Positions 17,980 through 41,920 of a DNA stretch of 64,000 nucleotides are shown here, piece after piece. The DNA lies in contig JAHBUH010000005.1 in assembly GCA_019638185.1 (NCBI GenBank), positions 61,300 to 125,299 of the forward strand, read 5' to 3'. The notes under the pieces are model-generated. The model saw nothing but the letters and a program-made list of their open reading frames with translations. It did not search any database and was not told where the DNA came from. Numbering within the stretch: the first letter of the stretch is position 1; every line of letters starts with the position of its first letter. Position numbers and translations under genes: made by a program. The stretch comes from Leadbetterella sp. (lineage in GTDB: Bacteria; Bacteroidota; Bacteroidia; Cytophagales; Spirosomataceae).

Positions 17980-20900
17980 TTAGTAGTTAATTGTTATTCT
18001 GTTTGGAGTATTAAAATCACTTATATGTGGAGGTAAATAACAGGTATAATATATAGAAAAGTATGCTCCTTGACATCTGGGAATATCTCCTTTTAATTTC
18101 AAATATTGAAACTTATTAGATTTTCGCGTTGTATAAATTATATTTTCAGGATTTGGCAGCAAACAACCATTATATCCATTGGGCACCGCAGTAGATAAGA
18201 ATGTCTCAGGATGTTTATTGGTAAAAATAATCTCATATCGTTCATACTCCATATTATTTCTAAGTTCAGTACCTACAAAAGTTGTTCCCATCGTTTGGGG
18301 CATAATAAGTTGATTTGAGTTACAGGTTTCCTCAATAGGGGTACAAGCTAAAACGTGTATTGCAGAAGAAGCTATAGAAGTTTGACAGTCTGTACTACAT
18401 CTAGCTGTATATACTCCCACACCTACATTTATACTTGCTCCGCTCATATTATTACTCCATGTAATTGTCCCATTACATCCAGCAGCCGTAAGAGTAGCCT
18501 GTTCTCCATCACATATTGTCGTTTTGTTAACACTTATAACCGGTGGAGTCGGTGAGTTTGTACTATTGACTGTTACGCTATTGGATTGCTTAGCATCACA
18601 CCCTATCTTACTACACGTAGCCGTATAACTCCCTACTCCCACCGATATCGAAGCCCCTGCACCACCATTACTCCATGTCACTGTTTCACCGACACATCCT
18701 GTAGCCGTCAAAGTAGCCTTTTCTGTACCACAGACCGAGGTTTTATTCGTAGATATTGTAAATGTAAAATTACAGGGCTCTTTCTCATCTATCACCGTTC
18801 CCTCGTTAGAAGCCCCGCTTACACATCCTTCTATCACACACTGAGCGGTATAGGTGCCTGCACCTGCACTGATTTGATTTCCGGTGTCGCCTGTACTCCA
18901 TTTGATTGTGCCGCCACAGTTCGAAGCATACAGTGTTATGGTTTGGCCTGCCGTTACCGTTCCTGAACCGGGTATGATCACCGGAGCCGGTGGAGGGTTA
19001 AGACAATTTCCAATCGTAAAGTCGGTCATAGCGCTGGCGCTACCTTCGCAGCTGTTAGCGGCTTTGCATTTGGCGTAGTGAAAATGACGGCCGGTTGCTG
19101 ACTCGTAGTATTTACTGCCTGACCCGATGTGCTGATTGCCGCTGTTGTACCACTCTACTGCGTGAGAGCCACACCCGGTGGCTTCTATTTCTACGGTGGT
19201 TCCCGTATTAAACGGCGAGTTTCCTTTCACAGTAACGGATGGCACGGGGAGGGGGGTTACACATTGCCCTATCTGAACTCTCACCCAGCCTGAAAGCTCA
19301 CTTTCACAATTATTCGCACCCTGGGTACACGTAGCTCTGAAATACTGGTCGCCCACACTGTTTATACTGTGTACTACGTTGTTAGAAATTTTTGCTCCAC
19401 CCGAATTGTACCAGGTGATGGTGCCCCCATCGCAGCCATGAGCCTGCAGGAATACGGTAGTGCCTTCTTCATAGACCGTGTTTCCGTCTATAACGGTATC
19501 TCCTATCTTGGCAAAGGCATACGGTGCAGCAGGTGGATTGGTACATTTCTCTACACGAATGACTATATAGCCGGTAAAACCACTTTCACAGCCGTTATGA
19601 TCTTTACAGGTAGCTTTGTAGTAATAGGGGCCTCCAATACCTATATGACTAAAATCCGCTCCCGTGCCTACCATCTGGTCTCCCGAGTTATACCAGATTA
19701 CGGTACCGGAGCAGCCTCTCCCGTACAGCGGGATGGAGCTGCCGTATTCCGCCGTTTGGCCATCATAAGGAGAAGATATGGCGGGCGGCTCAGGTGTGCA
19801 GCTGCACTTATCAATATGGATGTTTTCATCACTGAAGTTACTCTCACAGCCATCAGGTGTAACACATTTCACCCTGTATTGATAATACCCGTTTTCGGTT
19901 TCCTTTCTCATAAGGTAGTTGTCCATATAGGCCAGGTATTCGTCGTTACGATACCATTTTAGGATACCGCCATTGTTGCACGTCGTAGCATGCAGTTCCG
20001 TTTCCGTGCAGGAGGTCCAGCCGCCGGGCATCTTGGTGAGGGTAGGCCCCGAAGGCCTGGCTAAGAGGTTAAGTGTGACCCTATTGGAGGGATCACTGTA
20101 GCACTCGTTGAGTTTGCATCGGATTTTATAGGTAAACTGCCGGGGGGTAGAGAGGTCCGGATGAGCTACTGTCCGGGTATTTCCGCCGCTTGTCCACGGA
20201 CCCTCATTTTCTGACCATTGCAATACACCCGGGCAGAAAACTGATGCGGTTAACGTGGCTTCCATACTGGCACAGTAGTGCTCCTCTGTGCGGGAAGATA
20301 CTAACTTCGGGGCAGCTAACGGGTTATATACGGTAATGGTTATCTCATTGGTAACTACTTCTATGCAGTTCAGATCATAACACCGGGCGGTGTAAGTGGT
20401 GCTGATTTCAGGGCTAACGGTAACGGTGGCTGTAGTGGCCCCGTTTGACCATTCCACGGCATGCGGGCATCCTGTAATAGTCAGTGTGGTACTGTAGCCT
20501 TTGCATATACTGCTGTTATCGGCTGTGGTAGAGATAGACGGGGCGAAATTGACTTTGGGGGTAACGATGAATTCATTGTCTTTTACTTCTACCAGGAGTG
20601 AAGCGCCCGATTCCAGTTTAATTTCATTGGTTACCGGGTTAGCGTTTCCGCCCTTGGTGTTCAGCATATAACTGAAACCCGAAGTTTCGTTAAATGTAAA
20701 CAGGTAATCTGACGTTATTTCTTTTGCAGAAGCGGCACAAGCCTTTAACTTTATTTTTCCGCTCAGCAGGGCATTAATCTTACGATTGCAGCCAAAGGTG
20801 ACGTAGGCCTTTTCTAATGAGGCATCCAAAGGATGGATTCCCGAAGTGGTGCCTTTATCCAGGGCAATGAGCTTGTCAGCACCGGCCTGGCCTATTAATC

Positions 20901-21837
20901 CCCCGTTTATGTCCATAAACAACCCGCTGGAAGGTATTTTGGCTAATTTTCCTCCGTCTTTTTGAAGGATAATTCCCGGTAGGCGCAGGTTAAAGTTACC
21001 CAGGGATACCCCCTGCCAGTAATTGCCTGACTCTGCTCCGCATTTCGGCAAACCCGGAGGGTTCTGGCGAATACTGAAATCTATCAGGGCATTACTACCT
21101 GATTCAAAATGAAAGCCGAATTCTTTGATTTGGCGGGAATGGAAATGATTTGCTACACGGGCCTGCAGAAAAATATCGTTCCAGTCATAAACCGTTTGCG
21201 AAGCAAACACCAAAGCCAGCGGAAGCTCCGGATGTATACTTTTTCCTTCACTATCTTCCTGGTTTACGCTGTTAAATATTTTCAGATAACCAGACAGCGT
21301 CAGTTTTTCAAAAGCTCCGCAGTTAAAACTCAGCCGCGTGTCCTGGTCCAGGCCCAGCACCATGGTATTGCCGGACATAGCCACTTCAAAAAACTTGTTT
21401 TTGCCGGCCAGCAAACTCACCGCTTCCGGACTTAGCTGGGCATTTTTTTCGGAGCTGAGCAGCCCGGGAAGCAGGCGCATTTCTCCCTTAAAGCCGTGTT
21501 TGGCCGAAAAACCGATAGCGGGGCTGTTAAAATAAAGCACCTGGCCGGGCATTTCAGGATTAGGTACAAAGCGGGCTCCCACTTCTAAGGTAGAACCGCC
21601 GGCCGTAAAGTTCATGGCCGTAACCACGATGTCATACGTATGCTCATCTATGGTGGTGCGGAACACCACCGGCAAAGACGAAAGGCCGGACTCCGGAATG
21701 CTGCCTGAGCTCACACTCACTACCCGCCCTTTACTGACGGCTTCATTAATGGCTCCCTCTATTTGGGCTCCCGTAAGGGCGGTTTGCGAATAACCGAAAA
21801 GCGGCAGAAAAAATAAAAATGTAAATAGTGCTCTCAT
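17980..21837 (-). CDS. Secreted Cys-rich protein with Ig-like repeats, no T9SS CTD
   Basis: 1285 aa, signal peptide ending GYS-Q; about 8 repeats of type PxAP...TLTAxGCxGxVxWSNG...YTAxC; unique N-terminal about 420 aa; AT-rich 3' end. Confidence 0.8.
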   Translation of the reverse strand: MRALFTFLFFLPLFGYSQTALTGAQIEGAINEAVSKGRVVSVSSGSIPESGLSSLPVVFRTTIDEHTYDIVVTAMNFTAGGSTLEVGARFVPNPEMPGQVLYFNSPAIGFSAKHGFKGEMRLLPGLLSSEKNAQLSPEAVSLLAGKNKFFEVAMSGNTMVLGLDQDTRLSFNCGAFEKLTLSGYLKIFNSVNQEDSEGKSIHPELPLALVFASQTVYDWNDIFLQARVANHFHSRQIKEFGFHFESGSNALIDFSIRQNPPGLPKCGAESGNYWQGVSLGNFNLRLPGIILQKDGGKLAKIPSSGLFMDINGGLIGQAGADKLIALDKGTTSGIHPLDASLEKAYVTFGCNRKINALLSGKIKLKACAASAKEITSDYLFTFNETSGFSYMLNTKGGNANPVTNEIKLESGASLLVEVKDNEFIVTPKVNFAPSISTTADNSSICKGYSTTLTITGCPHAVEWSNGATTATVTVSPEISTTYTARCYDLNCIEVVTNEITITVYNPLAAPKLVSSRTEEHYCASMEATLTASVFCPGVLQWSENEGPWTSGGNTRTVAHPDLSTPRQFTYKIRCKLNECYSDPSNRVTLNLLARPSGPTLTKMPGGWTSCTETELHATTCNNGGILKWYRNDEYLAYMDNYLMRKETENGYYQYRVKCVTPDGCESNFSDENIHIDKCSCTPEPPAISSPYDGQTAEYGSSIPLYGRGCSGTVIWYNSGDQMVGTGADFSHIGIGGPYYYKATCKDHNGCESGFTGYIVIRVEKCTNPPAAPYAFAKIGDTVIDGNTVYEEGTTVFLQAHGCDGGTITWYNSGGAKISNNVVHSINSVGDQYFRATCTQGANNCESELSGWVRVQIGQCVTPLPVPSVTVKGNSPFNTGTTVEIEATGCGSHAVEWYNSGNQHIGSGSKYYESATGRHFHYAKCKAANSCEGSASAMTDFTIGNCLNPPPAPVIIPGSGTVTAGQTITLYASNCGGTIKWSTGDTGNQISAGAGTYTAQCVIEGCVSGASNEGTVIDEKEPCNFTFTISTNKTSVCGTEKATLTATGCVGETVTWSNGGAGASISVGVGSYTATCSKIGCDAKQSNSVTVNSTNSPTPPVISVNKTTICDGEQATLTAAGCNGTITWSNNMSGASINVGVGVYTARCSTDCQTSIASSAIHVLACTPIEETCNSNQLIMPQTMGTTFVGTELRNNMEYERYEIIFTNKHPETFLSTAVPNGYNGCLLPNPENIIYTTRKSNKFQYLKLKGDIPRCQGAYFSIYYTCYLPPHISDFNTPNRITINY

Positions 21838-22865
21838 TTGGATATAGTGGTTAAAATATCTTCAACTTGCTTGTATAGTGCCGGATCGCTGATGTGTTCG
21901 TTATAGTATTTTTTCAGGAAATCTGCTTCCTGCTGTTCAAGGGTTTCCCGTTTCTGACAATAGTCCTTCAGCAGTTTAATGGCATCCTGTAGTTTTGAAT
22001 TCCTGAAATAATAACCGCTCTCTGCCATAAAAAACCGGCCGGCTATACTAAGTTCGTCTACTCCGATAGACTTTAAGGCAGCCTGCATAAATTTAAGTTT
22101 TGAAAAGCTGAAACGCTCCGCTCTTTCGGAATGGAGGCTCCACATAATCACATTTTCGAGAGCCTGGTTTACTTCTTCCCGCCCGTAGCGGGTGTAGTAC
22201 TCTTCCCGGTGGTTAAGGATTTGCATAAACAGCGGATGCTCGTCATCGGTGAGTACTTTCTGAAGAATCATAAACCCATCGTCTTTGGGAGGCTCTGCGC
22301 CCGTAAGTAAGCCGTAGGCCTGCATGGCTTCTATGTTCAGGTTTTCATCAGAGGTATACCGGGCCAGGTAAGCCAGGTTTACCAAAAAGTCGGGCTGCCG
22401 GTAACCCTCCCTAAAGGCCTGTTTCTGAGCGGGCCAGTTGGCTTTGGGGTCGAGAGCCCGCGCAGCAAAAGCCATAATGGAGGTTTCGTTATTCTGAGGG
22501 TCGCCCGCCGGATAAACCGCCAGCAGTGTGCTGTCCGCCTGCCAGAAAGTAAGCAGCGGTGTAGACATCACATTCAGTTCCAGGTTTTGACGGAATGCCC
22601 TACCGTCTTCCGAATTTACCTCCAGTTTATAATTTACGAAGGTGGTATTGTAATGTCCGCCAATGGTACTGTTTATGGCAAAAGTTTCCAGAAAATGTTC
22701 ACAGTGGGGGCAGCCGTCAGCATGAATCATGATAAAAAGCGGTTTCCGTAAAACTTCTGCTTTACGAAAAGCCGACTGCAGGTCTCCGTTCTCAAAATTT
22801 ATCTGAGAGAAAGCCGTAAGCGGAAACAGCAGAATTAATAGTAGTTTATTTTTTATTAATCGCAT
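21834..22865 (-). CDS. Exported thioredoxin-family protein (CPHC active site)
   Basis: Likely start MRLIKN at 22865 (track starts at 22883); signal peptide; KPLFIMIHADGCPHC; overlaps next gene by 4 nt. Confidence 0.82.
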   Translation of the reverse strand: MRLIKNKLLLILLFPLTAFSQINFENGDLQSAFRKAEVLRKPLFIMIHADGCPHCEHFLETFAINSTIGGHYNTTFVNYKLEVNSEDGRAFRQNLELNVMSTPLLTFWQADSTLLAVYPAGDPQNNETSIMAFAARALDPKANWPAQKQAFREGYRQPDFLVNLAYLARYTSDENLNIEAMQAYGLLTGAEPPKDDGFMILQKVLTDDEHPLFMQILNHREEYYTRYGREEVNQALENVIMWSLHSERAERFSFSKLKFMQAALKSIGVDELSIAGRFFMAESGYYFRNSKLQDAIKLLKDYCQKRETLEQQEADFLKKYYNEHISDPALYKQVEDILTTISK

Positions 22866-22921
22866 AGAGTTTATGTATATCATTTCTTAGATAGTTTGTA
22901 GAATCTTTATATTTCGGGCTT

Positions 22922-23114
22922 CTATTTGGTCTTCCACTTCTCATACACCGCCTTTTTGAGAAAAAGTTTAGTTAATGAATCCCTGCTTAAGGTAGAATTA
23001 TCTATTTTGTTACCATCACTGTCCCAATACGCCCATTTCTCATATTGAAATTCTATTCTTTCAAAGAAGGAGTCATTGATTTCCCAGTTGCCGGTGGAAG
23101 ATTTTTTTAAATAA
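22922..23114. repeat. 193-nt direct repeat, copy 1
   Basis: Matches 24270-24462 at 189/193 nt by manual alignment; encodes the identical last 63 aa of immunity C and B. Confidence 0.9.
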
Positions 23115-23593
23115 CCTCGAAATACTTCTTTCATCACAATATTGTGAAGTTCCTCAAAAGTATTTGGAACATAACGTATTTGCTGATTTCGTGGAGCGAC
23201 AAGATATGGGCCATAAAAAAAGAACCACTTATCATCAATTTTAATCCCATATATGTAATGTATCCCATCATGAGTAGCATCATCATATTTTGATAGTTGT
23301 ACCTTTATAGCTCCTATCAACTTATTACCTTCACTTTTAAAACATAAAAGGGAGTCTAATTCCCATGTATTAACTTTCAGATTTTGGATTATTTTCAGAT
23401 TGCTATCTATCCAATTATTCAAGCTGTCATTCATTTGAGAATATGCCTTTTCATACTCTTTTTCTCCTACAATTCCAATAGAATGCTTGCGATAGAGCAA
23501 AGTATAGTCTTCAGAAGTTTCTTTACTCTTTTTTTGCTCGCAAGCAACTAGCAAAATCACTAGAATCAATATAATTTTATTTTTTATTAACAT
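22922..23593 (-). CDS. Putative immunity lipoprotein C (orphan cassette C)
   Basis: 223 aa, lipobox LVAC; paralog of 24270-24944 and 25119-25768 (shared GIxIxxKWxFF and YLKKSS...WEIN motifs); start overlaps stop of upstream toxin-tip fragment. Confidence 0.7.
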   Translation of the reverse strand: MLIKNKIILILVILLVACEQKKSKETSEDYTLLYRKHSIGIVGEKEYEKAYSQMNDSLNNWIDSNLKIIQNLKVNTWELDSLLCFKSEGNKLIGAIKVQLSKYDDATHDGIHYIYGIKIDDKWFFFYGPYLVAPRNQQIRYVPNTFEELHNIVMKEVFRGYLKKSSTGNWEINDSFFERIEFQYEKWAYWDSDGNKIDNSTLSRDSLTKLFLKKAVYEKWKTK

Positions 23594-24008
23594 GTCCTGG
23601 CTCTTCTTGTTTTAGTTCAAATATCCACCCATAATTACTAATACTATGACTATTCAAGAAACTTTTAGGAACTTCAATAGAAAAATCTTCATACATTTCG
23701 TACACCGGTACAGGATTACCTGCTCGGTCTTGGCCTATCCGGATTATCCTGGTTTTCAGGACTGGCCGTGTGGTGGTATAGCTGTCCGGAATAAATGCAC
23801 GCCCACTTTTTACAGTAGCAATTTCCAGACCTCCCACGGCGCATTGGGGAGCCACACCATCCTGTTTCCAAAGAAAATCCGCATTTTTTTCGCCCAGATT
23901 ACTTCCGTATTGCCAAACCTGTTGCCAACGATCCGGATTTACCGAGCCTCCGCAACCGTTTTCAGGCGCAATAATATAATAGCCTCCCCACCGTATACGG
24001 CCTCCCAG
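23577..24008 (-). pseudogene. Orphan toxin C-terminal fragment C (in frame with RAYT fragment)
   Basis: QDGVAPQCAVGGLE...KSGRAFIP...SHSISNYGWIFE, homologous to fragments at 24928-25110 and 25752-25940. Confidence 0.65.
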
Positions 24009-24146
24009 CTGCTCTTGGCAGAACTTAAAGCTGGCCCAAAGTATATTTCTATAGACCTTTCTTGTAAAAACATCCACCCAATCTACAATGGTAAAGGTCA
24101 TAAAGTGAGGTGCTTCTTGACTTCGTATAACATAACCTTCTTTCAT
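24009..24146 (-). mobile_element. N-terminal fragment of REP-associated tyrosine transposase (RAYT, IS200/Y1-like)
   Basis: MKEGYVIRSQEAPHFMTFTIVDWVDVFTRKVYRNILWASFKFCQEQ matches the recalled Bacteroidota RAYT start (HFxTxTxxxWxDxF...SxxxCQ); truncated before the HUH motif. Confidence 0.75.
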
Positions 24147-24169
24147 TTCATTTTCTTTTAAGTATTTAT

Positions 24170-24269: not shown

Positions 24270-24462
24270 TTATTTTGTCTTCCACTTCTCATACACCGCC
24301 TTTTTGAGAAAAAGTTTAGTTAATGAATCCCTGCTTAAGGTAGAATTATCTATTTTGTTACCATCACTGTCCCAGTACGCCCATTTCTCATATTGAAATT
24401 CTATTCTTTCAAAGAAGGAATCATTGATTTCCCAGTTGCCGGTGGAAGATTTTTTTAAATAA
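24270..24462. repeat. 193-nt direct repeat, copy 2
   Basis: See 22922-23114; offset 1348 nt. Confidence 0.9.
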
Positions 24463-24944
24463 TTCCTATAAGCATTTTTTATAGCTATTTCATGAAGTTG
24501 CTCAAAACTAAGGGAGGTTCCTCGTTTACGAGAAATAACCATTGTAGCACCAACAAAAAAATACCATTTCTTCTCTATTGCTACACCATATAAATACCAA
24601 ATGTCGTCTTGTGTGCAATTGGGTTTGTTACATTGCAATGACAATGTTGTAACTAACTTGTTTCTAAATCTATTAAAACACATTACATTATCTAATTTAT
24701 AAGGATAAAGTTCTAAAGCCGGAAATGCCTTAACGTTATTTCCTTGCCAATTCTTTAGAGAATCCTTAATTGCTTGATGGACCTCATTGTAAACTTCTTT
24801 ACCAATCAAATTTTGAGATTGAGTAATTACTCGCCTTTCAATAGCATACAAATTCGTACCTTCTTTTTCCCTTTCATTAGGATAGCATCCTAGTAAAAGA
24901 GGGAAAAATAGATAAAATAGCTTTTTTTTATTTGGGTATAACAT
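24270..24944 (-). CDS. Putative immunity lipoprotein B (orphan cassette B)
   Basis: Likely start MLYPNKKKLFYLFFPLLLGC at 24944 (track starts at 24983); lipobox LLGC; paralog of Imm A and C. Confidence 0.7.
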   Translation of the reverse strand: MLYPNKKKLFYLFFPLLLGCYPNEREKEGTNLYAIERRVITQSQNLIGKEVYNEVHQAIKDSLKNWQGNNVKAFPALELYPYKLDNVMCFNRFRNKLVTTLSLQCNKPNCTQDDIWYLYGVAIEKKWYFFVGATMVISRKRGTSLSFEQLHEIAIKNAYRNYLKKSSTGNWEINDSFFERIEFQYEKWAYWDSDGNKIDNSTLSRDSLTKLFLKKAVYEKWKTK

Positions 24945-25110
24945 AACCAGGTAATCCATTTTGACGTTCAAATATCCACCCATAATTACTAATACTATGG
25001 CTTTTCACAAAACCCTTTGTAGTAACGTTTGTGAGTATAAATGTACGACCACTTTTACTTGTCAGGCTTTCCAAACGTTCTACAGAACATTGCGCAACTA
25101 CACCATCTTG
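24928..25110 (-). pseudogene. Orphan toxin C-terminal fragment B
   Basis: QDGVVAQCSVERLESLTSKSGRTFILTNVTTKGFVKSHSISNYGWIFERQNGLPGYVIPK*; 24968-25083 matches 25798-25913 at 110/116 nt. Confidence 0.65.
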
Positions 25111-25118
25111 CCTATTTT

Positions 25119-25768
25119 TTAGTATAATTTCTTTGACGAGGTATTTCTCTTGTTCCAATTTGATTCTATGACTGACTTTGTCCACCATCTTTCCCATTCT
25201 TCCTCAGTTTCAAATTTACCCTTATGAATAGCTAATATTCTGTCGATATCACTAAAAAACTCCTCATTGATTTCCCATTCATCACTAGAAGATTTTTTTA
25301 AGTAACCCTGAAATACTTTTTTCATGGCGATGTCGTGGAGTTGGGTGAAGGTTAATGATTTCCCCTTTTCTCTAGGTAGAACCATATAAGGACCACTAAA
25401 AAAATACCACTTGTCTTCTATCTGGACTCCATAAAAAAAAGTAATTCCGTCACCCTTCCCTTTCGAATCGGAATTCCTAACTTTAAGAGCCATGATAGAT
25501 TTTGTCCCATCTTTGTTTACACAAAAGTTGAATCAATTTCACTATCATTTATTGTATATTGGTATGACTTAAGACTAGCGTTTTGCCAAGAAATCAAAGA
25601 ATCTTGTGCCGACTTATATAATTTCAAATAATTTCCATTTAGTGATTGATCTGAATATTGAAATATCAACTTTTCATTTAATAGACCAGCATCCTTATTA
25701 TCATTGATACAGCCTAATAATAAAATATTAATAACAATGATTAGACAACACTTATTTAGACTTAACAT
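25119..25768 (-). pseudogene. Putative immunity lipoprotein A, split by a 1-nt frameshift
   Basis: MLSLNKCCLIIVINILLLGC... (start 25768) ends ...EIDSTFV*; one extra T in the run at 25523-25526 gives EIDSTFCVNKDGTKSIMALKV, joining 25119-25493 into a 216-aa paralog. Confidence 0.75.
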
Positions 25769-25940
25769 AACCAGGAGCTCCTTCTTTAATTGTTCCATCA
25801 AATATCCATCCATAATTTCCAATACTATGGCTTTTCACAAAGCCCTTTGTAGTAACGTTTGTGGGTATAAATGTACGACCACTTTTACTTGTCAGGCTTT
25901 CCAAACCTTCTACCGCACACTGTGGAGCTACGCCATTTTG
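25752..25940 (-). pseudogene. Orphan toxin C-terminal fragment A (no start codon, missing from ORF track)
   Basis: Manual translation QNGVAPQCAVEGLESLTSKSGRTFIPTNVTTKGFVKSHSIGNYGWIFDGTIKEGAPGYVKSK*. Confidence 0.7.
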
Positions 25941-26160: not shown

Positions 26161-26388
26161 CTAATTTGAAAAATTGCCTGAGTTATTTTTTTCTTTAATA
26201 AACCATTTTTTATAAACTATTACGTAAACTACAGATGATATAATGCCTCCTCGAATAACATTTGCAGGGATATCAAATTCAACATATAATCTTCCTTTTG
26301 GTACTTGTGCTTCAAAGCCTAAAGGTCCATTTAATAGAACATGAGTAATACCATTTTCACTCTCTTGTAAAATTTTTGTTTCTAACAT
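26161..26388 (-). pseudogene. TreTu-like ADP-ribosyltransferase toxin remnant
   Basis: LQESENGITHV...FEAQVPKGRLYVEFDIP resembles the recalled TreTu core VQESxxGxTHV...QAxxGSxYVEFDVP; the upstream RWMS motif is absent and the end diverges. Confidence 0.55.
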
Positions 26389-26409: not shown

Positions 26410-26952
26410 TCATGGTCGTCCTGGATTCATAGGATCATAAATATAAAATCGAATATTAGGGTTAGACTTAGTCCCATTCGGATAATATAATAGTTTCTTA
26501 TCTTTCTTTTTTATAGAGTAATATGGTCTAACAGGTTCAAAATCATTGGCCAATTCTTTGACGGTTCCTCCGCTTCTAATTACAGATATTAACTCCACAT
26601 CACTATAATATTTTGAACCCCAAAATTTGTGAAATAGCAATCCTCTTCCAATAGAACTAGGTCCTGAATTTCTATTTACTGTTAATCCTTCTTCATAAAA
26701 AGTTTGTATAAAAAAATTGACATTTTTAATTTTCAAAGAGTCTTTAAAATTAGCATTTACATAAAACGAGTCTACTAAAGCTATTAAGTCCAAATTGTCT
26801 TTCGGTGGATGATTAATAACATAGTAATGTACAACCTTTGTACTGTCGTAATCTGCCCACCTGAGCTTAAAAATTTCTGCTTGTTTTTCTTTGCAGCTTA
26901 AACTAGTTAACACCACTATAAAAATGAATAGTATATTTCTAATAATTTCCAT
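26410..26952 (-). CDS. Putative cognate immunity lipoprotein of the 2276-aa toxin
   Basis: 180 aa, lipobox SLSC, AT-rich, start overlaps the toxin stop by 14 nt. Confidence 0.7.
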   Translation of the reverse strand: MEIIRNILFIFIVVLTSLSCKEKQAEIFKLRWADYDSTKVVHYYVINHPPKDNLDLIALVDSFYVNANFKDSLKIKNVNFFIQTFYEEGLTVNRNSGPSSIGRGLLFHKFWGSKYYSDVELISVIRSGGTVKELANDFEPVRPYYSIKKKDKKLLYYPNGTKSNPNIRFYIYDPMNPGRP

Positions 26953-33778: not shown

Positions 33779-35548
33779 TTACCTGTTCACTTTTAGGGAT
33801 TTATTCAGGACATTGAAATTATATACATAACCCAGGGTAAAGGTATATTCCGTGAAATCCGGAATCATCCGCGTGGTACTTCGGGCTTTGCGATCCAGCA
33901 CTACGGCATCAAAACGTATCCGGTGGTTATCCGGCAGCGTATAGATGAGCCCGTATCGCAGGTTAATGATACTTTCTTTCACCTCCGGCATCCGGCCCAG
34001 GGTATACATCGTATTCAGCTGGTTATTGACTTTTCCAAAAGTCTTGGTAAGCACCAATGAGGGGCCAAACTGCCGGTCAGGCATACCCGCAAAGTAGCTG
34101 TCACTGTAAAACAGGGCCGTAGACAGGCTCATTTTTTGTTTTTGCAGCTCCAGGGTATAATCCAGGCTGGCATTGGTCATGTTATTGGCCGCTTTCTGGT
34201 TTCCGTTCTGATCCTGGCCCCGCTGAAACAGCCCCATGACACTGAGGCTCCGGCTGAGGTTTTCGTTATCGGATGGAATCCGCCACGACAGCGCGGTTTG
34301 CAGGTTACTGTTGATCTGGCGGAAAGCCAGCGTATCAAGGTAATTGTAAGGGGTGGCCTGCGCGAGATAAGCAAAATTGGACTGGGTATTGGAAAAACTG
34401 GTAAAATTGGAATACGACAGGTTAACGTTTATGTTCTCGTGGGGTACCAGCACCAGGTTAGCACTGCCCACCCAGCGGTTCAGGGTCTTCAGTTTTTGTT
34501 TGTCCACATTGTCGCGCTGCATCCCCAGGTTAGCACTCAGGGTAACTTTTCCCTGCATAAATACGGAAGAGTAACGCCCGGAAAAGGTTTCGAGGTCATT
34601 GGTAAAAAAGTAAGCGCCCAGCGTACGGTATCCGGGCGGCACACGGGTGTATTCTGCTCCCAGGTTAAAGGTCTTTCCATTATAATTGATAAAGCCCTTG
34701 TAAGCCCCCAGGTACTGCGTGGTGGTTTTAGGAGTCAGGGTGCCCAGGAAAGTAGGTTTACGGCTGCCCGGGCGGTCATCGGCCCGAAGGTCCGTGGTAA
34801 TGCCGGACCAGGCGGTTTCTCCCCCTATGGTCAGGAAGTTAAACAGCCCTTTTTCCAGCTTCAGCGATACCACCGAGTTTTCCATGGGTGGAATGCCCAG
34901 GCTGTCCAGGTTATAGGGAAGGGAATGGAGCTTATCTTTAGCGGTAAAGAATATGATTTCAGCTTTATCCTGTTTTTTTCGATAGCCGGCCATCACGCCC
35001 CAGCCGGTACGTTTGTAAGAGGGCATATTGTTCCTGACGGTATTGTGTACATCTACCCGCACGGCCCGCATCAGGTTACCGGTCATGGCTGCTACATAAA
35101 AGGGCATTTTGGCCGGTTTATATTCCACACCCACACCGTCAAAGCGATGCCCGGCCAGCGTATACGGCGAAAAATTCATGGAAGCCGTGCCCAGGTGGAG
35201 GGTAAGGCCCTTATAGGTGGGCCGCATGATGAGCCGGTTCAGGGGCTGGGCAAACCGGTAGTTACGGTCAAAGGGGTGCGAAAAGTTAATGTTCTGGTTG
35301 GATAAGCTGAAGGCCACCGGCATTTTTACCTTTCCGAATAAGTCCATGGTGAGGCTGCCCGTAAAGAGGGTATTAAACGGGATGCTCCGGTTTTCCAGGC
35401 CGGTGGTGTTATAGGAAGTAAAGTTAGCTCCTGCCATTCCGTTTACTTTTATACCTGCCCTTTTCAGGTGATCAGTTTCCTGTTTCACCTGCCCGGATAC
35501 TGCACCGGCCAGAAACAAAAACATACTGGTAATCAGTTTTCTTTTCAT
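33779..35548 (-). CDS. Putative outer-membrane beta-barrel of the toxin module
   Basis: 589 aa, signal peptide, alternating amphipathic strands, YTRVPPGYRTLGAYFFTND motif, beta-signal-like FTLGYVYNF near the end. Confidence 0.7.
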   Translation of the reverse strand: MKRKLITSMFLFLAGAVSGQVKQETDHLKRAGIKVNGMAGANFTSYNTTGLENRSIPFNTLFTGSLTMDLFGKVKMPVAFSLSNQNINFSHPFDRNYRFAQPLNRLIMRPTYKGLTLHLGTASMNFSPYTLAGHRFDGVGVEYKPAKMPFYVAAMTGNLMRAVRVDVHNTVRNNMPSYKRTGWGVMAGYRKKQDKAEIIFFTAKDKLHSLPYNLDSLGIPPMENSVVSLKLEKGLFNFLTIGGETAWSGITTDLRADDRPGSRKPTFLGTLTPKTTTQYLGAYKGFINYNGKTFNLGAEYTRVPPGYRTLGAYFFTNDLETFSGRYSSVFMQGKVTLSANLGMQRDNVDKQKLKTLNRWVGSANLVLVPHENINVNLSYSNFTSFSNTQSNFAYLAQATPYNYLDTLAFRQINSNLQTALSWRIPSDNENLSRSLSVMGLFQRGQDQNGNQKAANNMTNASLDYTLELQKQKMSLSTALFYSDSYFAGMPDRQFGPSLVLTKTFGKVNNQLNTMYTLGRMPEVKESIINLRYGLIYTLPDNHRIRFDAVVLDRKARSTTRMIPDFTEYTFTLGYVYNFNVLNKSLKVNR

Positions 35549-35552
35549 GGCT

Positions 35553-38500
35553 CTAATTCAGTAAAAGTACTTTAGTAGTGAGTACGGCGTTTCCGGAATG
35601 TACCGTGAGAATGTACGTATCCTGTATGAAATTCGTGATTTTGATGTCTTCCTCGTAATCTTTCTGACCGGTGAATTTTTCTTCATACATGAGCATGGCA
35701 TTGGAGGAACGGACCAGTCGCACGTGGATATCCTGGGATTTGGAGAGTTTGACTTTTAGGGTAAACTTACCAAAGTTAGGGTTGGGAGCCACTGCTATAG
35801 ACTGGAGAATGTCATACTCCTGGAAGTAGAGGGAGTCATTGGTACTGCCGATATCTTCTTTCGTGAAGATCTTAATCTCTCTTACCTTGCGGTTTTCACA
35901 GTCGCCTTTAATAGCCAGCATTTCAATGGTGTAAACACCGGGCTGGTCAATACGGAAAGTCATATCGGTATTGGAGTGCTGAATAGACCGGGCTTCGCCG
36001 GGCAGCTTCCATAGGATCTGGTCAGGAGCGGGCCTTGAAATGTCAAGGGCATACACCGTGTCGGCCACAAATGCCTCCACGGTCATCAGGAAGTCAGCTT
36101 CCATGAGGTTGCTGTTGTGTTTTAACGTATAGCTGCCGCTGATACTGCATCCTGTAGCATTCGATACGGTCAGGCCGTAGGTGCCGGCTTCCTTCACAGT
36201 GATGGTGTGGCGGATGCTTTCTATGGGCTGGCCGTTAAAAGTCCATACTACGTTTTTATCCGGGTTCCCGGACTCCAGCATCACTTCCTGCCCCCGGCAG
36301 AATTCGTTTTGCGTGGGAAAGTGTATAGGATTCAGCGGCTCGGCTTCGCTTATGTGTGTGGGTAGGGTCAGCCGGCATCCGTTAGCATCCTTCACCCGTA
36401 TTTCATAGGCTCCGGCCGGGAGGCTGCTGAAAGCGTAAGAGCCGTTGGTAAATTGAGCCAAAGTACTATCAGCCAGATACACCCCATACCCGCCCACGCC
36501 GCCGCTCACTTCTAAAGAAATGGCGGCATTGGCATCGCCCGCACACACCGGCGAAACCGTAGACAGCTCTGCTGCCAGTGCCTTGGGCCACAGTAGCTTT
36601 ACCAGGGAGACCGTGTCTTCACAGCCCCGCCGGTCTGTCACCTTAAAGCTGTACTCGCCCTGGCTGAGGCCGGTAAAAAGCCCGTTCTTCTGGTCAAAGA
36701 TATTGTCGCGGTAGTAGGTATTTCCACCGTTTCCGCCGGTGCTGATCACGTTTATTTTTCCGTTGGCTTCGCCGGCGCAGAGGGGATCGGCTTTGGAAGT
36801 CAGGCTCAGCACCAGGAGTTCGGGCTGGGTGAGGGTCAGGCTGGCCTTGTGGGTACATTGGTGCTGGTCAGTGATATAAAAGGTGTAATCACCGGCGGCC
36901 AGCTGGTCAAATACCGGGCTGCCGAAAAACGAGACGCTGTCTTTGGAAAAGCTGTAGGCCGGCGTGCCGCCCCAGGCTTCCACGGTTACCACCCCGTTTT
37001 TCTCCCCGTAGCACCGCACCGTATCGGTATACATGGGCCGCAGCTCCAGCTTCTCCGGCTGGATCAGCCGGATAGATTTAGATACCAGGCAGGCGTGGTC
37101 ATCTTTTACGGTCAGTTCGTATCCGCCGGCTTTCAGTTTGCCGAAATGCGTGTCTGCCTGGTAATCTGCCTTGTTTAAGGTATAGGTATACGGCGTCACG
37201 CCGCCCCAGGCCTGCACATCCAGCTCGCCGGTGTTATCGTCAAAACAGAGGTTATCTTTTTTGGTGACGGTGCTTTCCAGCAGCGGGGGCTGGGTAAGGG
37301 TAACGCGGATGCTGTCCTGGCAGCCCAGGCGGTTCATGGCCCGCATCATGTACTGGCCGGCGGTCAGGCTACTGAAGGTATTACTGCTACCAAAGCCGCC
37401 GTTATTAATGGCGTACGTAAACGGGGCCATGTTATTATTGCCGGCCACGCTGATGCTTCCGGATGCATTTCCGAAACAATCAATGTTTTGGGTGTGGGTT
37501 ATCTGTATGTCCGCCCGGTTTTGTTCTTTGATCTCCACACTCAGCACCGTGATGCAGCTCTGAGGCTGATCTTTGATAAATACGGCATATACGTTAGGTG
37601 AAAGATTACTGAACGAACGTCTGGGACCGTACGCACTGCCGCTGAGTGAGAGCTGGTAGTTGCCGTTTCCGCCGGTAATGGGATTTACCTCCAGGTTAGC
37701 ATCGGCTACATTACAGGAGATGGGGTGAATGGTGTGGCCCGCTTTCAGGCTGCCCGGTAGCGAAAGGTCTACCTCCTTTTTGTAGGAACACAAACTATCA
37801 CTCACCGTCACGATGTAACTGCCGTTATACAGGCTGCCGAAGTCGGGGGTGTTTTGCACCCCTTGCAGGGTAGAAATACTGTAACTGTAAGGTTGGCGCC
37901 CGCCCTGTGTGTTCATAATGCTAATGCTGCCATTGTTCTGGTCACAGGCTGTGGGCAGGTTTTTGCTGATATGGAAGGTGATGTTCGTACTTTTGGGAAT
38001 GATGGTGACCGTATAATCTTCCTGACAGCCCCGTACATCCGTAGCCGTCACCCTGTAATCTCCGGCCTTCAGGTTTATGAAATGCCCTGTAGTATTAGAA
38101 ATGTCTGCGATAGGATTAAACTGAAAGTCTTTGCCCCACAGCCGGTAACTGAAACCCCCGTTAGAGCCGTCTGCCTGCACCAGGGCCTCGCCCCGGCTGT
38201 ATTCCAGGCAGTTTACATCCTCCTTCTTCAGCATGCTGATCCGGATGGGAGTGGGCTCAGTAAGGGTAAGGCTGCCCAGCGTAAACGCACAGGCATTCCC
38301 ATCCCTGACCTGCAGGGTATAGCCTCCGGCCGCCAGGCCGGTAAATACCGCTGAGCTCTGGTAGGGTGAGCCGCTCAGGCTGTACTGATACGGAAGCGTT
38401 CCTCCCGAAGCCGCAAACTCTAACCTTCCCGAAAGGTCACTGTTACACACCAGGTTACTGCTGCCGGCCAAGGCCGCGTTTAAAGCCGCTGCGGGTTGGA

Positions 38501-40727
38501 GCAGAGTGGTAGATACCGCTGCCGTACAGCCGTGGGTATCCTGCACGGTAAAGCTTTTGGATCCTGCATTCAGACTGCTAAAGGAGGCGGAAGCCTGCAG
38601 CGATCCGCCACCCAACTGGTATTGATAAGCCGGAGTGCCCCCACTGGCCAGCAGGGTGATTGAACCCGTGCTTTCGCCATAGCATTTAATATTCACCGAA
38701 GCATCTACCACCAGCTGGAGCAGAGGCGGCTGGGTGAGGGTTACGATATTGGATTCCGCCCCGCAGCCGTTGGCATCTTTTACCCGGATCTTGAAATTAC
38801 CCATGCTCAGGGTATCCAGGGTAATGCCTGCGGCAGCGGCTGTATAGTTTAGGGCGTTAGTAGAATAGCTGTATCCGCCTACTCCGCCGGTAGTGTTTAC
38901 GGCCACACTGCCGGTACTGCCCCCGTAACACAGCACGTGATGGTTTACAGCGGCCGTTACCCCCAGCGGGGAAGGCTGGCTGACCGTAATACCGGGTAAG
39001 GTAATCTGGCACAGGTCATCCTTTACCGTAACCGTATATACCCCGCTGGAAAGCCCGGTAAACGAAGCGGAGCTTTGAAATGCTGCGCTGCCCAAAGCAT
39101 ACTGCAAACCCCCTGCCGGGGCCGAAGCGGAGGCATCTACGGTGATGGTGCCGGTGGGGTCCCCGTGGCAAAGTACAGCAGATACCTGTGTAACGGCCAG
39201 TAAACGGCTCTGCGGATGAAGGGTGAGCTCCACACTTTTTTTACAACCCGCCGCATCGCGGATGTAGAACGTTTTGGTACCGGCACTCAGCCCGTTAAAG
39301 ACCGCCTGGTTACCGTAAGTTACATCATCGGCGGAATACTGATAAAAACCCGCTCCGCCGGATGCGCTGAGGGTTACACGGGCATCGGCTCCGTCTAAAC
39401 AGCTCAGCTGCTGAGTAATGCTACCGGATACATTCATCACCGGGTTTTCGCCTACACTGATGGTCTTTTGAGCGCTGCAGCCCGAGGCATCCCGCACATA
39501 AATGGTGTAGTTACCGGCACTCAGGCCACCGAGAGTGGTATTGGAGCTGAAAGATATATTATCAGTGGAATATTGAAGCGGAGCCTGGCCACCGGTAACA
39601 TTCAGCGTAATGCTTCCGTTGCTGCCGCCGCTGCAGCCCACGTTGGTCATCGTCTCATTGATGACCATGTCCTGGGCCACGTAGAAGTTCTGCCGCACCA
39701 CCCTGATGCCGTCAATAATGGCCTGCACCCACTGGTTCCCGGAGGCACCGGGTGTCCAGGTAACCCCCGTGGTATACGGCAGCAGGCCGCCGTTAGAAAG
39801 GCTGCCGCTGCTGGCGGAATAGATGACGGTCCGGTTAATACTTTTGCGTTCCACCCCGTCAATAAACAGCTTAAAAGTGCCCTCGTTAAACGTAAAAAGA
39901 AATTTACTGCTGCTGAAATCCCCCGTCAGGTTCTGGGTATCTTCACTTCCGTCATAGTTAAACTGCTTAATGAGGATAGAAGAATTACTGAGGAACTGAA
40001 CGGATAGTGGCCCTACAAAAAACTCATTCTTATCCGACTGGCCGTTATGGGTGTATTCCAGTGAAAGGGGCGTTTGGCCTGACCAGCTGGCATAGGAAAA
40101 CAGATCTGCGGCGCCGTTAGCGGCGATGCTCCCGTTGGCATTGACGGTCATGGTGGTGGAGGTGATCCCCAGCTTATCTATATCAAATGTGCCTGAAGTG
40201 ATGGGGCTGCCGTTAATTTTGTAAACCCCCGTGGTATAATTGCTGCTGGTAGAGGCCACCATCAGGCCGATACGGTGCAGTGCATGGGAGTTAATATTGA
40301 CCGGCTCGCATTTACCTACATTAAGGTAGGAGCTGAGGCGGCTGTAAGGCAGGGTTTCGTCGTGGGAGCCGATACCGTTACCCGGATAGGAGGCGCCGCC
40401 CGGAACCTCCACATACACGTAGTCGTCGGTTACAGTCACCGGCGGGGTGGTGTTGCCACAGGCATCTTTCACCGTGAGAACATCGCCCACTTTGAGGTAT
40501 CCGAACGGGAACCGGAACTGGCAGATACCCCCGCCGCAATACCCGTAATGGAAGTCGGTATGCTCTGCTCCATTAATATACATTTTCAGCCCGCTGCCGT
40601 AACAGAGCGCGTTTACATTATAAACCGTAAACGAAGTGGAGGTATACCGCTGCTGGTAGAGGTGTAACTGCTGTGCGGCGGAATTGAAAGAAAGAAACAG
40701 TAAAAAAAGAGGTAGAAGTTTTTTCAT
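35553..40727 (-). CDS. T9SS type-A CTD cargo protein with many SprB repeats
   Basis: 1724 aa, signal peptide, about 20 repeats C..G..G.I...A.GG..PY.YS...F..L.AG.Y...V.D...C, PKD-like segment, C-terminal IAVAPNPNFGKF...YILTV...TTKVLLLN. Confidence 0.9.
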   Translation of the reverse strand: MKKLLPLFLLFLSFNSAAQQLHLYQQRYTSTSFTVYNVNALCYGSGLKMYINGAEHTDFHYGYCGGGICQFRFPFGYLKVGDVLTVKDACGNTTPPVTVTDDYVYVEVPGGASYPGNGIGSHDETLPYSRLSSYLNVGKCEPVNINSHALHRIGLMVASTSSNYTTGVYKINGSPITSGTFDIDKLGITSTTMTVNANGSIAANGAADLFSYASWSGQTPLSLEYTHNGQSDKNEFFVGPLSVQFLSNSSILIKQFNYDGSEDTQNLTGDFSSSKFLFTFNEGTFKLFIDGVERKSINRTVIYSASSGSLSNGGLLPYTTGVTWTPGASGNQWVQAIIDGIRVVRQNFYVAQDMVINETMTNVGCSGGSNGSITLNVTGGQAPLQYSTDNISFSSNTTLGGLSAGNYTIYVRDASGCSAQKTISVGENPVMNVSGSITQQLSCLDGADARVTLSASGGAGFYQYSADDVTYGNQAVFNGLSAGTKTFYIRDAAGCKKSVELTLHPQSRLLAVTQVSAVLCHGDPTGTITVDASASAPAGGLQYALGSAAFQSSASFTGLSSGVYTVTVKDDLCQITLPGITVSQPSPLGVTAAVNHHVLCYGGSTGSVAVNTTGGVGGYSYSTNALNYTAAAAGITLDTLSMGNFKIRVKDANGCGAESNIVTLTQPPLLQLVVDASVNIKCYGESTGSITLLASGGTPAYQYQLGGGSLQASASFSSLNAGSKSFTVQDTHGCTAAVSTTLLQPAAALNAALAGSSNLVCNSDLSGRLEFAASGGTLPYQYSLSGSPYQSSAVFTGLAAGGYTLQVRDGNACAFTLGSLTLTEPTPIRISMLKKEDVNCLEYSRGEALVQADGSNGGFSYRLWGKDFQFNPIADISNTTGHFINLKAGDYRVTATDVRGCQEDYTVTIIPKSTNITFHISKNLPTACDQNNGSISIMNTQGGRQPYSYSISTLQGVQNTPDFGSLYNGSYIVTVSDSLCSYKKEVDLSLPGSLKAGHTIHPISCNVADANLEVNPITGGNGNYQLSLSGSAYGPRRSFSNLSPNVYAVFIKDQPQSCITVLSVEIKEQNRADIQITHTQNIDCFGNASGSISVAGNNNMAPFTYAINNGGFGSSNTFSSLTAGQYMMRAMNRLGCQDSIRVTLTQPPLLESTVTKKDNLCFDDNTGELDVQAWGGVTPYTYTLNKADYQADTHFGKLKAGGYELTVKDDHACLVSKSIRLIQPEKLELRPMYTDTVRCYGEKNGVVTVEAWGGTPAYSFSKDSVSFFGSPVFDQLAAGDYTFYITDQHQCTHKASLTLTQPELLVLSLTSKADPLCAGEANGKINVISTGGNGGNTYYRDNIFDQKNGLFTGLSQGEYSFKVTDRRGCEDTVSLVKLLWPKALAAELSTVSPVCAGDANAAISLEVSGGVGGYGVYLADSTLAQFTNGSYAFSSLPAGAYEIRVKDANGCRLTLPTHISEAEPLNPIHFPTQNEFCRGQEVMLESGNPDKNVVWTFNGQPIESIRHTITVKEAGTYGLTVSNATGCSISGSYTLKHNSNLMEADFLMTVEAFVADTVYALDISRPAPDQILWKLPGEARSIQHSNTDMTFRIDQPGVYTIEMLAIKGDCENRKVREIKIFTKEDIGSTNDSLYFQEYDILQSIAVAPNPNFGKFTLKVKLSKSQDIHVRLVRSSNAMLMYEEKFTGQKDYEEDIKITNFIQDTYILTVHSGNAVLTTKVLLLN

Positions 40728-40732
40728 GTGTT

Positions 40733-41920
40733 TTAAGGGATAATCAGGGAGTCATCAGTCTGAAAGGAATATTCCAATCCTTTATCGGGGTCGGAAAGGC
40801 GGAAGGATATGCGGTAGGTTCCTTTGGGTAAATCAGCCGGCAGGGTAATGCCCAGCGTTTCTGTGGCCGCATAATAGATGCCGTTAAAAATGTAAGATTT
40901 TGAACCCGGGGAGAGGGTTACCTGGTAAAAGCGGTAAGGCTGTGCCCTGAAGTTAAAGGTGGTAAAAAGCAGGGTGCCTTTCTGGTCATACTTCTGCATG
41001 CGGGCAAAAGGAAGTTCCCCGGAAAAAGCCGTAAACGTTTTATCTTTTTCCCGGCTTACCTTTCTGTCGGTAAGATTCACCACCTGCACGGTATACCGGC
41101 CGGCCGTAAAATCCTTGGCCACATAATATTCTAAAGTATCCTTATGAAGGGCAGCGGGCAGTACCGTCAGGGAGTCAACTCCTCTTTTCAGGCGAATGGC
41201 GTACCGGAACACGGCCGGGTTTAAGTAGGCGGCCACTATCTTTAAGGTATCGGGCGGAAAAAGGTTCTCCCGATTCAGAATTTTAACCCGGGGAGCCGGC
41301 TGGGTGAAGCGCAGAGGCTGCCTATAGCCTGCCTCCAGGCTCTTTACTTTGACTTTCAGGGTATATTCTCCGGGTGGGGTTTCCAGCGGGATGCGCACCC
41401 GCAGCGTACTGTCGCTGACATAGCTGAAAGGGAGGGTCAGGGAGGTGGTTCCCTGTTCGGCCGTAACCCGTATATCCAGCGGAAAATCACCGAAATACCT
41501 CCCCTGAACGTGAAAATCAAAGCCCGCTTCCACGCTGTCGGCCGAAACGGATGACACCACGGGCCGGGGTTGGTCTTCGGTAGAAATACTGACGGTGTAA
41601 ATGACCTTGGTGCCGTTTGGCGATACCACCGTGTAATAAACCGTGCGGGTGAAGTCCTGGGGCACGGCAGAGGCCGGGATAATTTCACCGGTGCCGGATA
41701 ATCGGATCAGCGGTTTTAAAGAACGCAGGGGAGTTTGGTAGGGCAGTACCAGCTGAATGGTTCTTTTATCGGGGTCAATCACGGCATGGGCCGACTCATA
41801 GCCCTCGAGTTTAAACTCCGCAATAAGAGGGCTTTCGGAATCGTGGTCTACCGCATCTGTACAGGAAAACATCATTCCTGACAGGAAAATAAGCCACAGG
41901 GCAGTGCGTTTTGCTATCAT
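40733..41920 (-). CDS. Lipoprotein with DUF5018-like and IPT/TIG-like domains
   Basis: Lipobox MFSC then acidic TDAVDHD; PASAVPQDFTRTVYYTVVSPNG; later VQGRYFG Ig-like segments. Confidence 0.72.
   Translation of the reverse strand: MIAKRTALWLIFLSGMMFSCTDAVDHDSESPLIAEFKLEGYESAHAVIDPDKRTIQLVLPYQTPLRSLKPLIRLSGTGEIIPASAVPQDFTRTVYYTVVSPNGTKVIYTVSISTEDQPRPVVSSVSADSVEAGFDFHVQGRYFGDFPLDIRVTAEQGTTSLTLPFSYVSDSTLRVRIPLETPPGEYTLKVKVKSLEAGYRQPLRFTQPAPRVKILNRENLFPPDTLKIVAAYLNPAVFRYAIRLKRGVDSLTVLPAALHKDTLEYYVAKDFTAGRYTVQVVNLTDRKVSREKDKTFTAFSGELPFARMQKYDQKGTLLFTTFNFRAQPYRFYQVTLSPGSKSYIFNGIYYAATETLGITLPADLPKGTYRISFRLSDPDKGLEYSFQTDDSLIIP

Follow-up and report, generated by a model that had tools for sequence, protein, structure and literature searches.

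A divergent TANFOR-class toxin–immunity locus in a Bacteroidota genome and its candidate outer-membrane barrel partner

How does a giant toxin that is exported by the Sec pathway and carries no type IX secretion system (T9SS) signal leave a Bacteroidota cell? Jana, Salomon and Bosis defined the TANFOR-headed proteins of Bacteroidetes, which carry Sec signal peptides, as polymorphic toxins, reported an enrichment of SprB and Por_Secre_tail domains around their genes, and speculated on T9SS export while leaving the export route open (Life Sci Alliance, 2020; PMC7073777). The same question is raised by the block of genes at 17980-41920 of the window, that is, of the whole 64,000-nucleotide (nt) stretch analysed here (contig C35 61300-125299 of a 4.2-Mb, 39-contig Bacteroidota genome), in which a 2276-amino-acid (aa) carrier ending in a toxin domain is encoded directly behind a 589-aa outer-membrane beta-barrel. 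Judging from the sequences, the block is very probably a polymorphic toxin–immunity locus of the TANFOR class and a new, divergent member of this published class, and the barrel is a concrete candidate for the missing way out. An earlier note on this DNA had also read the block as a polymorphic toxin system, and had known of no characterised system with its export logic; the first reading holds, whereas the class itself is not unknown, as TANFOR toxins and their SprB/Por_Secre_tail enrichment were already described in PMC7073777.

The carrier begins with the signal peptide MKKIFTLFTILVLSIRGYAQ, and Pfam detected fn3 and SprB domains along it and DUF3289 at its C-terminus. The head, about 285 residues long, was matched by nothing in all of NCBIfam, and TIGR02542, the curated TANFOR model, did not match the 2276-aa carrier at E ≤ 10, nor in a genome-wide search at E ≤ 1, so that TANFOR membership rests on homology to paralogues. 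The genome-wide search with TIGR02542 matched two paralogues, at 59.6 and 42.7 bits, both under the 67-bit cut-off, and the window head is 29% identical to these two over 280-300 residues (BLASTP, E = 1e-13 and 4e-16). Furthermore, it reached E = 7.8e-100 against a profile built from 26 barrel-linked heads, including one of the TIGR02542-matching paralogues, and the same profile revealed a fourth copy in the genome. These comparisons point to a divergent TANFOR-like head, which would have been missed by the published survey. The AlphaFold2 (AF2) model of the head (predicted local distance difference test score, pLDDT, 88.6) consists of two fibronectin type III (Fn3)/immunoglobulin (Ig)-like sandwiches, and Foldseek retrieved only generic Fn3 tandems with it, no specific relative. 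In other classes of Bacteroidota (genomes G013, G040, G220, G184, G023 and others), only the second sandwich matches (profile positions ~120-290), at the start of 4000-6400-aa proteins with a barrel nearby; because this sandwich matches alone, the head may be modular.

The architecture agrees with that of the published TANFOR toxins (PMC7073777) in the Sec signal peptide and N-terminal TANFOR-type head, the large carrier rich in Fn3 and SprB domains, the variable C-terminal toxin, the downstream immunity gene, the SprB/Por_Secre_tail neighbour and the lack of a T9SS C-terminal sorting domain (CTD) on the toxin, and differs in a head too divergent for TIGR02542. Pfam and NCBIfam scans of the carrier found no T9SS sorting family of type A or type B, no Rhs core, no PAAR/VgrG/Hcp and no LXG/WXG markers, which bears out the earlier description of a toxin lacking a T9SS CTD as well as Rhs, type VI secretion system (T6SS) and type VII secretion system (T7SS) marks. 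Conserved heads go with variable tips: across 52 barrel-linked carriers, mean column identity over the last 300 residues is 9%, and the tips include at least 12 different toxin Pfam families, comprising AHH (2), WHH, Col-Pyo DNase, EndoU, Endonuclea_NS_2, phage lysozyme, VgrG3_C, GH19, ADP-ribosyltransferase, C39_2 and PT-TG, with DUF3289 in the window carrier only. The closest relative in the genome collections searched, an uncultured Lacihabitans metagenome-assembled genome (MAG; locus L003), encodes a lipoprotein, a SprB/CTD protein and a barrel that are 47%, 72% and 82% identical, respectively, to those of the window, together with a thioredoxin homologue (60%) lying 3' of the carrier; its carrier is 49% identical over the first ~820 residues only, the remainder and the tip being unrelated. 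A constant C-terminus without turnover of downstream immunity genes, which the earlier note had set against its own reading, is not what the homologous loci have: their C-termini are not constant and immunity turns over, and the polymorphic-toxin reading therefore stands.

The guanine-plus-cytosine (GC) content of the window drops from ~0.52 to 0.29-0.43 across 23-32 kb, with a sharp break within the carrier gene at about codon 750-820 (0.49-0.59 before, 0.31-0.47 after) that falls where homology to the Lacihabitans ortholog ends. An AT-rich tip had been noted before; its low GC is real and its extent was understated, since low GC runs from about residue 750 of the carrier through the stalk, the immunity gene and the orphan genes to ~22.9 kb (22922). 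This low GC suggests that about 8.4 kb, holding the stalk, the tip, the immunity gene and the orphan cassettes, is imported DNA, and that the part from about residue 800 of the carrier to the last cassette arrived by recombination.

The tip scored 60.4 bits against Pfam PF11692 (DUF3289; cut-off 25, E = 2.6e-16) and matched PDB entries 9jdi and 9jg8 ('DUF3289 family protein') at E = 1e-19, with the DHFGLD and FRxWFxLQH motifs conserved in the 9jdi alignment. DUF3289 has been reported to be a colicin-M-like antibacterial toxin acting in the periplasm and a validated T6SS effector with its immunity gene downstream, and its periplasmic toxicity and neutralisation by cognate immunity have been demonstrated in proteobacterial homologues only (PMC11148199, PMC12135965). 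With these T6SS effectors, including that of Aeromonas jandaei (PMC12135965), the window tip shares the toxin domain, both motifs and an immunity gene directly downstream; it differs in being carried by a Sec-dependent TANFOR protein and in its neighbour, a 180-aa lipoprotein unrelated to DUF943, the immunity family of the PMC11148199 system, or to the 95-aa membrane protein of Aeromonas. DUF943 was rejected as an identity for the lipoprotein. DUF3289 is not named in the passages and five supplementary files of PMC7073777 that were searched. With this locus, the TANFOR repertoire gains a DUF3289 tip of the colicin-M type and, as a candidate, a new family of immunity lipoproteins.

The 180-aa lipoprotein is the candidate for the cognate immunity protein, and the strongest evidence for this role is the conserved pairing of tip and lipoprotein in Dyadobacter diqingensis, which also favours the adjacent immunity gene proposed earlier. 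The C-terminal 440-residue module of a TANFOR carrier of this species is 50% identical to that of the window carrier and the N-terminal part only 27%, which suggests an exchange of tip modules among carriers. Immediately behind the Dyadobacter toxin gene, with zero gap, comes a gene for a 164-aa lipoprotein 28% identical to the window 180-aa lipoprotein; an orphan DUF3289 fragment of 50 aa and two further paralogous lipoproteins come next, and all three Dyadobacter lipoproteins are 28% identical to that of the window (E = 1e-8 to 1e-10). These homologues emerged only from direct inspection of the Dyadobacter locus.

The barrel belongs to an unannotated family. Its AF2 model, made from a 43-sequence alignment (pLDDT 77, predicted template-modelling score 0.64), shows no plug, POTRA or other periplasmic domain. 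The top Foldseek matches were TonB-dependent receptors, PapC/FimD ushers, MtrB, LptD and SlpA, the best template-modelling score (TM-score) normalised to the query being 0.48 (MtrB); the search returned generic wide barrels only and no specific relative. More than 630 homologues were found, none with a Pfam domain, and their database names are generic or unsupported, no model backing the names 'TonB-dependent receptor' and 'porin' that some records bear. No Pfam or NCBIfam family was matched by the window protein or by any of 43 members tested (for PorP_SprF, at E ≤ 0.1), so that PorP/SprF, Omp85/TpsB, ushers and TonB-dependent receptors were rejected as assignments. The barrel is undescribed in the literature searched, as is the X domain discussed below. 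PMC7073777 mentions neither of them, nor any outer-membrane partner, because its enrichment test used annotated domains only, and the TANFOR literature otherwise searched does not treat export.

The linkage between barrel and head was assessed in two samples. In 80 barrel loci drawn from one-genome-per-species contigs, a same-strand open reading frame (ORF) with a TANFOR head, usually directly downstream, was present in 65, and the head followed the barrel in 49 of the 54 loci whose downstream sequence extended for 8 kb or more. An even sample of 301 Bacteroidota genomes contained 50 with the head and 50 with the barrel, and 47 genomes had both (Fisher p = 1e-47, ignoring phylogeny). A same-strand barrel lay within 16 kb of 56 of the 76 head matches, directly upstream in 43; the figure of 56/76 is probably an undercount, as no more than four candidates per genome were scored in the barrel search. 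Moreover, barrel–barrel and head–head distances were correlated (r = 0.91, 67 pairs), a value reached in 0 of 999 permutations. On these comparisons the barrel appears to be the constant partner of TANFOR heads, in keeping with the place beside the carrier that it had been given earlier. In a Cytophagales MAG (locus L012, 9926-20161), one barrel is followed by two tandem TANFOR-head genes (1235 and 1120 aa), and because of this arrangement one barrel may serve more than one cargo.

A second recurrent component is the ~400-aa N-terminal domain of the 1285-aa protein encoded at the end of the block, here called the X domain, which matched neither Pfam nor any PDB sequence; the whole protein matched no T9SS CTD family. 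The X domain was found in 36 of the 80 barrel loci, either downstream of the carrier or between it and the barrel, and in 28 of the 301 genomes; a TANFOR-like head is present in 26 of these, 25 of which have the barrel as well. X domain and head share one open frame in many genomes, and the fusion is also seen at the fetched locus L039. In the window, a separate, split-off gene encodes the X domain; it overlaps the thioredoxin gene by 4 nt and is translationally coupled to it. Its distribution points to the 1285-aa protein as a split-off part of the same machine, and its earlier inclusion in the block was justified. Elsewhere in the window genome, a very large protein (C37:112464-119525, minus strand) shares the Cys-paired repeats of the 1285-aa protein at 31-42% identity and many offsets, without an X domain.

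Four barrel and TANFOR pairs are present in the genome. The window pair is ~28% identical to each of the other three, in barrel and head alike, and the paralogues co-diverge. The three paralogous loci share the order of barrel, TANFOR protein (~1950-2070 aa), Fn3 protein (~650-670 aa), further exported proteins and a final lipoprotein. In the C4 carrier, the sole one scanned, CarboxypepD_reg repeats were found and a toxin tip was not recognisable. Next to the C4 copy lie a 976-aa protein and a response-regulator-like protein of 212 aa; size and N-terminal sequence are the only grounds on which they are assigned as a candidate two-component pair. The Fn3 partner, which occurs in the three paralogous loci and in ~22 of the 80 barrel loci, is absent here and was rejected as part of the window locus.

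Considering these results together, we propose the following course of events. The carrier would enter the periplasm via Sec, and its head would dock to, or thread through, the barrel encoded directly upstream, whose ~24-26 strands without a plug would give it the width to hold or pass a folded domain; the barrel would be dedicated to the carrier as its outer-membrane translocator, as its anchor, or in both roles. The stalk would then stand out from the cell surface and bear the toxin at its distal end, the toxin would reach the periplasm of a neighbour and attack the cell wall precursor pathway, and the lipoprotein would protect sibling cells. We infer, with somewhat more confidence than doubt, that the barrel is a dedicated outer-membrane partner in export or anchoring, and the explanation as a whole, a TANFOR toxin–immunity locus with the barrel as translocator or anchor, seems to us moderately probable. 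It is a more tentative proposal, towards which we do not quite lean, that barrel, TANFOR head and X domain, fused or split, make up an unrecognised secretion and display pathway of the Bacteroidota outer membrane. Such a pathway would use no C-terminal T9SS signals and would work like two-partner secretion or contact-dependent growth inhibition (CDI), though unrelated to them; the N-terminal TANFOR head would provide the signal for both targeting and anchoring, and every barrel paralogue would handle a giant cargo of its own, toxin or adhesin.

The part of the locus that deserves attention is the constant barrel together with the X domain. If the barrel is indeed a translocator or anchor, an undescribed export or display route of the Bacteroidota outer membrane would exist, TANFOR proteins, both toxins and adhesin-like paralogues, would form a defined cargo class, and this class would be about three times commoner than reported (17% of the sampled genomes here vs 5.8% in PMC7073777), because TIGR02542 misses divergent heads such as that of the window. 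The pathway reading, if correct, would supply the missing export route of the published TANFOR toxins.

The proposed system resembles CdiB/CdiA (type Vb), where a dedicated barrel gene likewise lies directly upstream of a giant carrier with a constant N-terminal domain and a variable C-terminal toxin, followed by an immunity gene and orphan tip/immunity cassettes. There is no homology in sequence or fold: the window barrel has no POTRA domain, is not Omp85-like and has ~24-26 strands instead of 16, the head is a pair of Fn3-like sandwiches and not a two-partner secretion beta-helix, and the stalk consists of Ig/Fn3/SprB domains and not of filamentous haemagglutinin repeats. No ShlB, POTRA or Bac_surface_Ag match was found in the 43 barrel members. 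Ushers (PapC/FimD), LptD/LptE and MtrB/MtrA have barrels of comparable width, each of which houses or passes a partner protein or Ig-like subunits; the likeness is only that of a generic large-barrel fold (TM-scores 0.2-0.5), and the window barrel lacks the plug and the N- and C-terminal domains of ushers.

Several points weigh against the role proposed for the barrel or against the reading of the locus as a whole. In addition to the missing TIGR02542 match, the head is an Fn3-like tandem of generic type in which nothing indicates a translocation signal, and adjacency and co-divergence would also be expected from simple co-inheritance of neighbouring genes. No nearby barrel was detected for 20 of the 76 head matches, and in genome G215, of the same order as the window genome, the components are dispersed over contig C1, with the barrel at 1692921-1694603, the X-domain protein at 1664585-1665742 and the TANFOR head at 2967268-2968155. 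The three paralogous copies without a recognisable toxin tip imply that the module is not toxin-specific and is no antagonism device in itself. The 180-aa lipoprotein had no homologue in a word-indexed search of 5.8 billion proteins. Finally, SprA, through which T9SS cargo would pass, is present in the window genome and in 47/47 genomes with barrel and head, vs 237/301 overall.

The last of these points belongs to the strongest alternative, the T9SS route hypothesised in PMC7073777, in which the toxin crosses the outer membrane via SprA, recognised by its head or carried with the CTD-bearing SprB protein, and the barrel acts after secretion as an anchor or regulator, much as PorP/SprF barrels do for type-B CTD cargo. 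The published neighbourhood enrichment (PMC7073777) agrees with it, and a SprB/Por_Secre_tail gene lies directly upstream of the barrel both here and in 15 of 45 loci. However, two thirds of the barrel loci have no CTD gene directly upstream of the barrel, the toxin carries neither a type-A nor a type-B CTD, and the SprA-negative genomes listed come, all but one, from a single family, so that the 47/47 is confounded by phylogeny and is weak evidence. Nor does the barrel resemble PorP/SprF or any other Pfam family. The T9SS pairs of type-B cargo and PorP/SprF barrel, such as SprB/SprF, are comparable in that a giant, repeat-rich surface protein of Bacteroidota is encoded beside its own barrel, with several paralogous pairs per genome; in the window, however, the recognition element would be N-terminal and not a C-terminal CTD, and the 589-aa barrel is about twice the size of PorP/SprF (~300-350 aa) and has no PorP_SprF match. 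We regard export through SprA as unlikely, if still worth serious consideration.

The 15 of 45 loci also decide the standing of the CTD-bearing protein itself, which the earlier note had placed, with the barrel, in the export module; as a general rule, this claim was rejected. Its CTD is borderline, with 28.0 bits for Por_Secre_tail (PF18962; cut-off 27) and 22.2 for TIGR04183 (cut-off 23). In the Spirosomataceae-type loci L003-L010, the 395-aa lipoprotein has a conserved place two genes upstream of the barrel. We take both proteins to be lineage-specific accessories, which may act as adhesins holding cells together.

It has further to be considered that the module might serve mainly the assembly of surface filaments or adhesins, the tip being a secondary cargo released, for example, by proteolysis at the pre-toxin region. 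Colicin M is a diffusible bacteriocin, and a released tip would be one too, needing a receptor on the target as colicin M does and not cell contact. In favour of this view are the three paralogous modules with CarboxypepD_reg repeats and Fn3 partners and no toxin, the lack of a toxin Pfam match in most barrel-linked carrier tips, and the nature of colicin M itself. Yet this alternative is compatible with most of the evidence for display of the toxin through the barrel and differs from it only in the last step of delivery, and polymorphic toxins typically show orphan cassettes and tip exchange whether they are contact-dependent or soluble; we consider it quite improbable. That we are dealing with a silent or decaying relic, or that the barrel is an ordinary porin adjacent by chance, is very improbable indeed, for although the 3' half is rich in fragments (TreTu_C remnant, truncated tips, split lipoprotein, transposase fusion) and the carrier gene of the closest ortholog, that of Lacihabitans, is frameshifted, all six large genes are intact and tightly packed, the motifs of the catalytic region of the tip are conserved, and chance adjacency is excluded by the co-occurrence and adjacency statistics.

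The features of the block and its surroundings are listed in Table 1. All 14 ORFs of 17980-41920 lie on the minus strand at the coordinates given before, the core genes being separated by gaps of 5, 4 and 9 nt and then a 14-nt overlap between the carrier and 180-aa lipoprotein genes; strand, gene order, spacing and both hairpins of the earlier description were all confirmed, and its by-eye domain calls (SprB with a type-A CTD, the latter borderline; fn3/SprB; CPHC thioredoxin; lipoboxes, which the small proteins of the block carry) were mostly right. The hairpin at the 5' boundary (-19.6 kcal/mol, z = -6.8, with 0 of 200 shuffles equally stable) probably terminates the acetyl-CoA synthetase gene upstream. 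Since the flanking genes are unrelated housekeeping genes, the edges of the block are correct. Promoter and terminator scans gave matches no commoner than in shuffled sequence. General scans assigned no Pfam or NCBIfam family to the 1285-aa protein, the barrel or the small ORFs, of which the 75-aa ORF later matched TreTu_C. The thioredoxin-like protein probably supports disulfide formation in the Cys-rich repeats; three tandem thioredoxin-like genes in the same genome (C14:55209-58114, minus strand) encode proteins distantly similar to it, with 24-29% identity.

Table 1. Features of the block and its flanks (window positions) and paralogous loci (contig positions)
Feature	Coordinates	Strand	Remarks
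Acetyl-CoA synthetase	42052-43947		upstream flank; unrelated housekeeping gene
5' boundary hairpin	41979..42030	-	perfect 21-bp AT-rich palindrome + U run; between acetyl-CoA synthetase gene and first gene of block
395-aa lipoprotein	40733..41920	-	signal peptide ending ...MMFSC; Ig-like/DUF5018-like stretches
1724-aa SprB-repeat protein	35553..40727	-	11 SprB repeats; probable type-A T9SS CTD
589-aa outer-membrane beta-barrel	33779..35548	-	~24-26 strands, residues 33-583; C-terminal FTLGYVYNF motif; unannotated family
2276-aa carrier	26939..33769	-	Sec signal peptide, TANFOR-like head, Fn3 domains, low-GC stalk with SprB repeats, pre-toxin region, DUF3289 tip
TANFOR-like head	32915..33769	-	residues 1-285; signal peptide + two Fn3/Ig-like beta-sandwiches
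DUF3289 toxin tip	26942..27472	-	residues ~2100-2276; DHFGLD + FRxWFxLQH motifs intact
180-aa lipoprotein	26410..26952	-	...LTSLSC; 14-nt overlap with toxin gene; candidate cognate immunity
75-aa TreTu-type toxin C-terminal remnant	26161..26388	-	displaced tip, no immunity gene behind; PF24691, E = 4e-9, 37.5 bits (cut-off 27)
Orphan cassette A	25119..25904	-	50-aa tip fragment (25752-25904) + lipoprotein split into two ORFs (25517-25822, 25119-25493)
Orphan cassette B	24270..25197	-	89-aa tip fragment (24928-25197) + 237-aa lipoprotein (24270-24983)
Orphan cassette C	22922..24146	-	189-aa ORF (23577-24146) + 223-aa lipoprotein (22922-23593)
349-aa secreted thioredoxin-like protein	21834..22883	-	Thioredoxin_7, CPHC motif; homologue downstream of carrier in closest relative
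1285-aa secreted protein	17980..21837	-	X domain (residues 41-450), then Cys-paired repeats
3' end hairpin	17891..17930	-	terminator-like stem + U run, weaker; -13.8 kcal/mol, z = -1.9
META/NlpE lipoprotein	17109-17822	opposite to block	downstream flank; unrelated housekeeping gene
Paralogous locus	C35:174851-186922	+	
Paralogous locus	C12:138211-150676	-	
Paralogous locus	C4:98642-109836	-	

Behind the immunity gene, the block carries displaced tips and orphan cassettes. The fragments of cassettes A and B and residues ~45-189 of the 189-aa ORF belong to one tip family, which an exhaustive HMMER search located in 824 proteins, at their very C-terminal end; among the best 150 of these, at least 11 carry TANFOR heads, so that this family ends full-length TANFOR proteins elsewhere and the orphan tips had been recognised correctly. 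The first ~50 residues of the 189-aa ORF match the N-terminus of 186-187-aa proteins in loci L065 and L033 that have an HUH-type H-I-H-L-L motif; resting on the motif of these homologues, the assignment of this N-terminus is to the putative start of a RAYT/IS200-like Y1 transposase, and the segment had no PDB match. Because the frame enters the orphan tip before the HUH motif, the 189-aa ORF would record a recombination junction. The cassette lipoproteins are paralogous, and the two intact copies (22922-23593 and 24270-24983) are 53% identical. Their last 24 residues (STLSRDSLTKLFLKKAVYEKWKTK) are identical, which fits a recent gene conversion between the 3' ends of the two genes.

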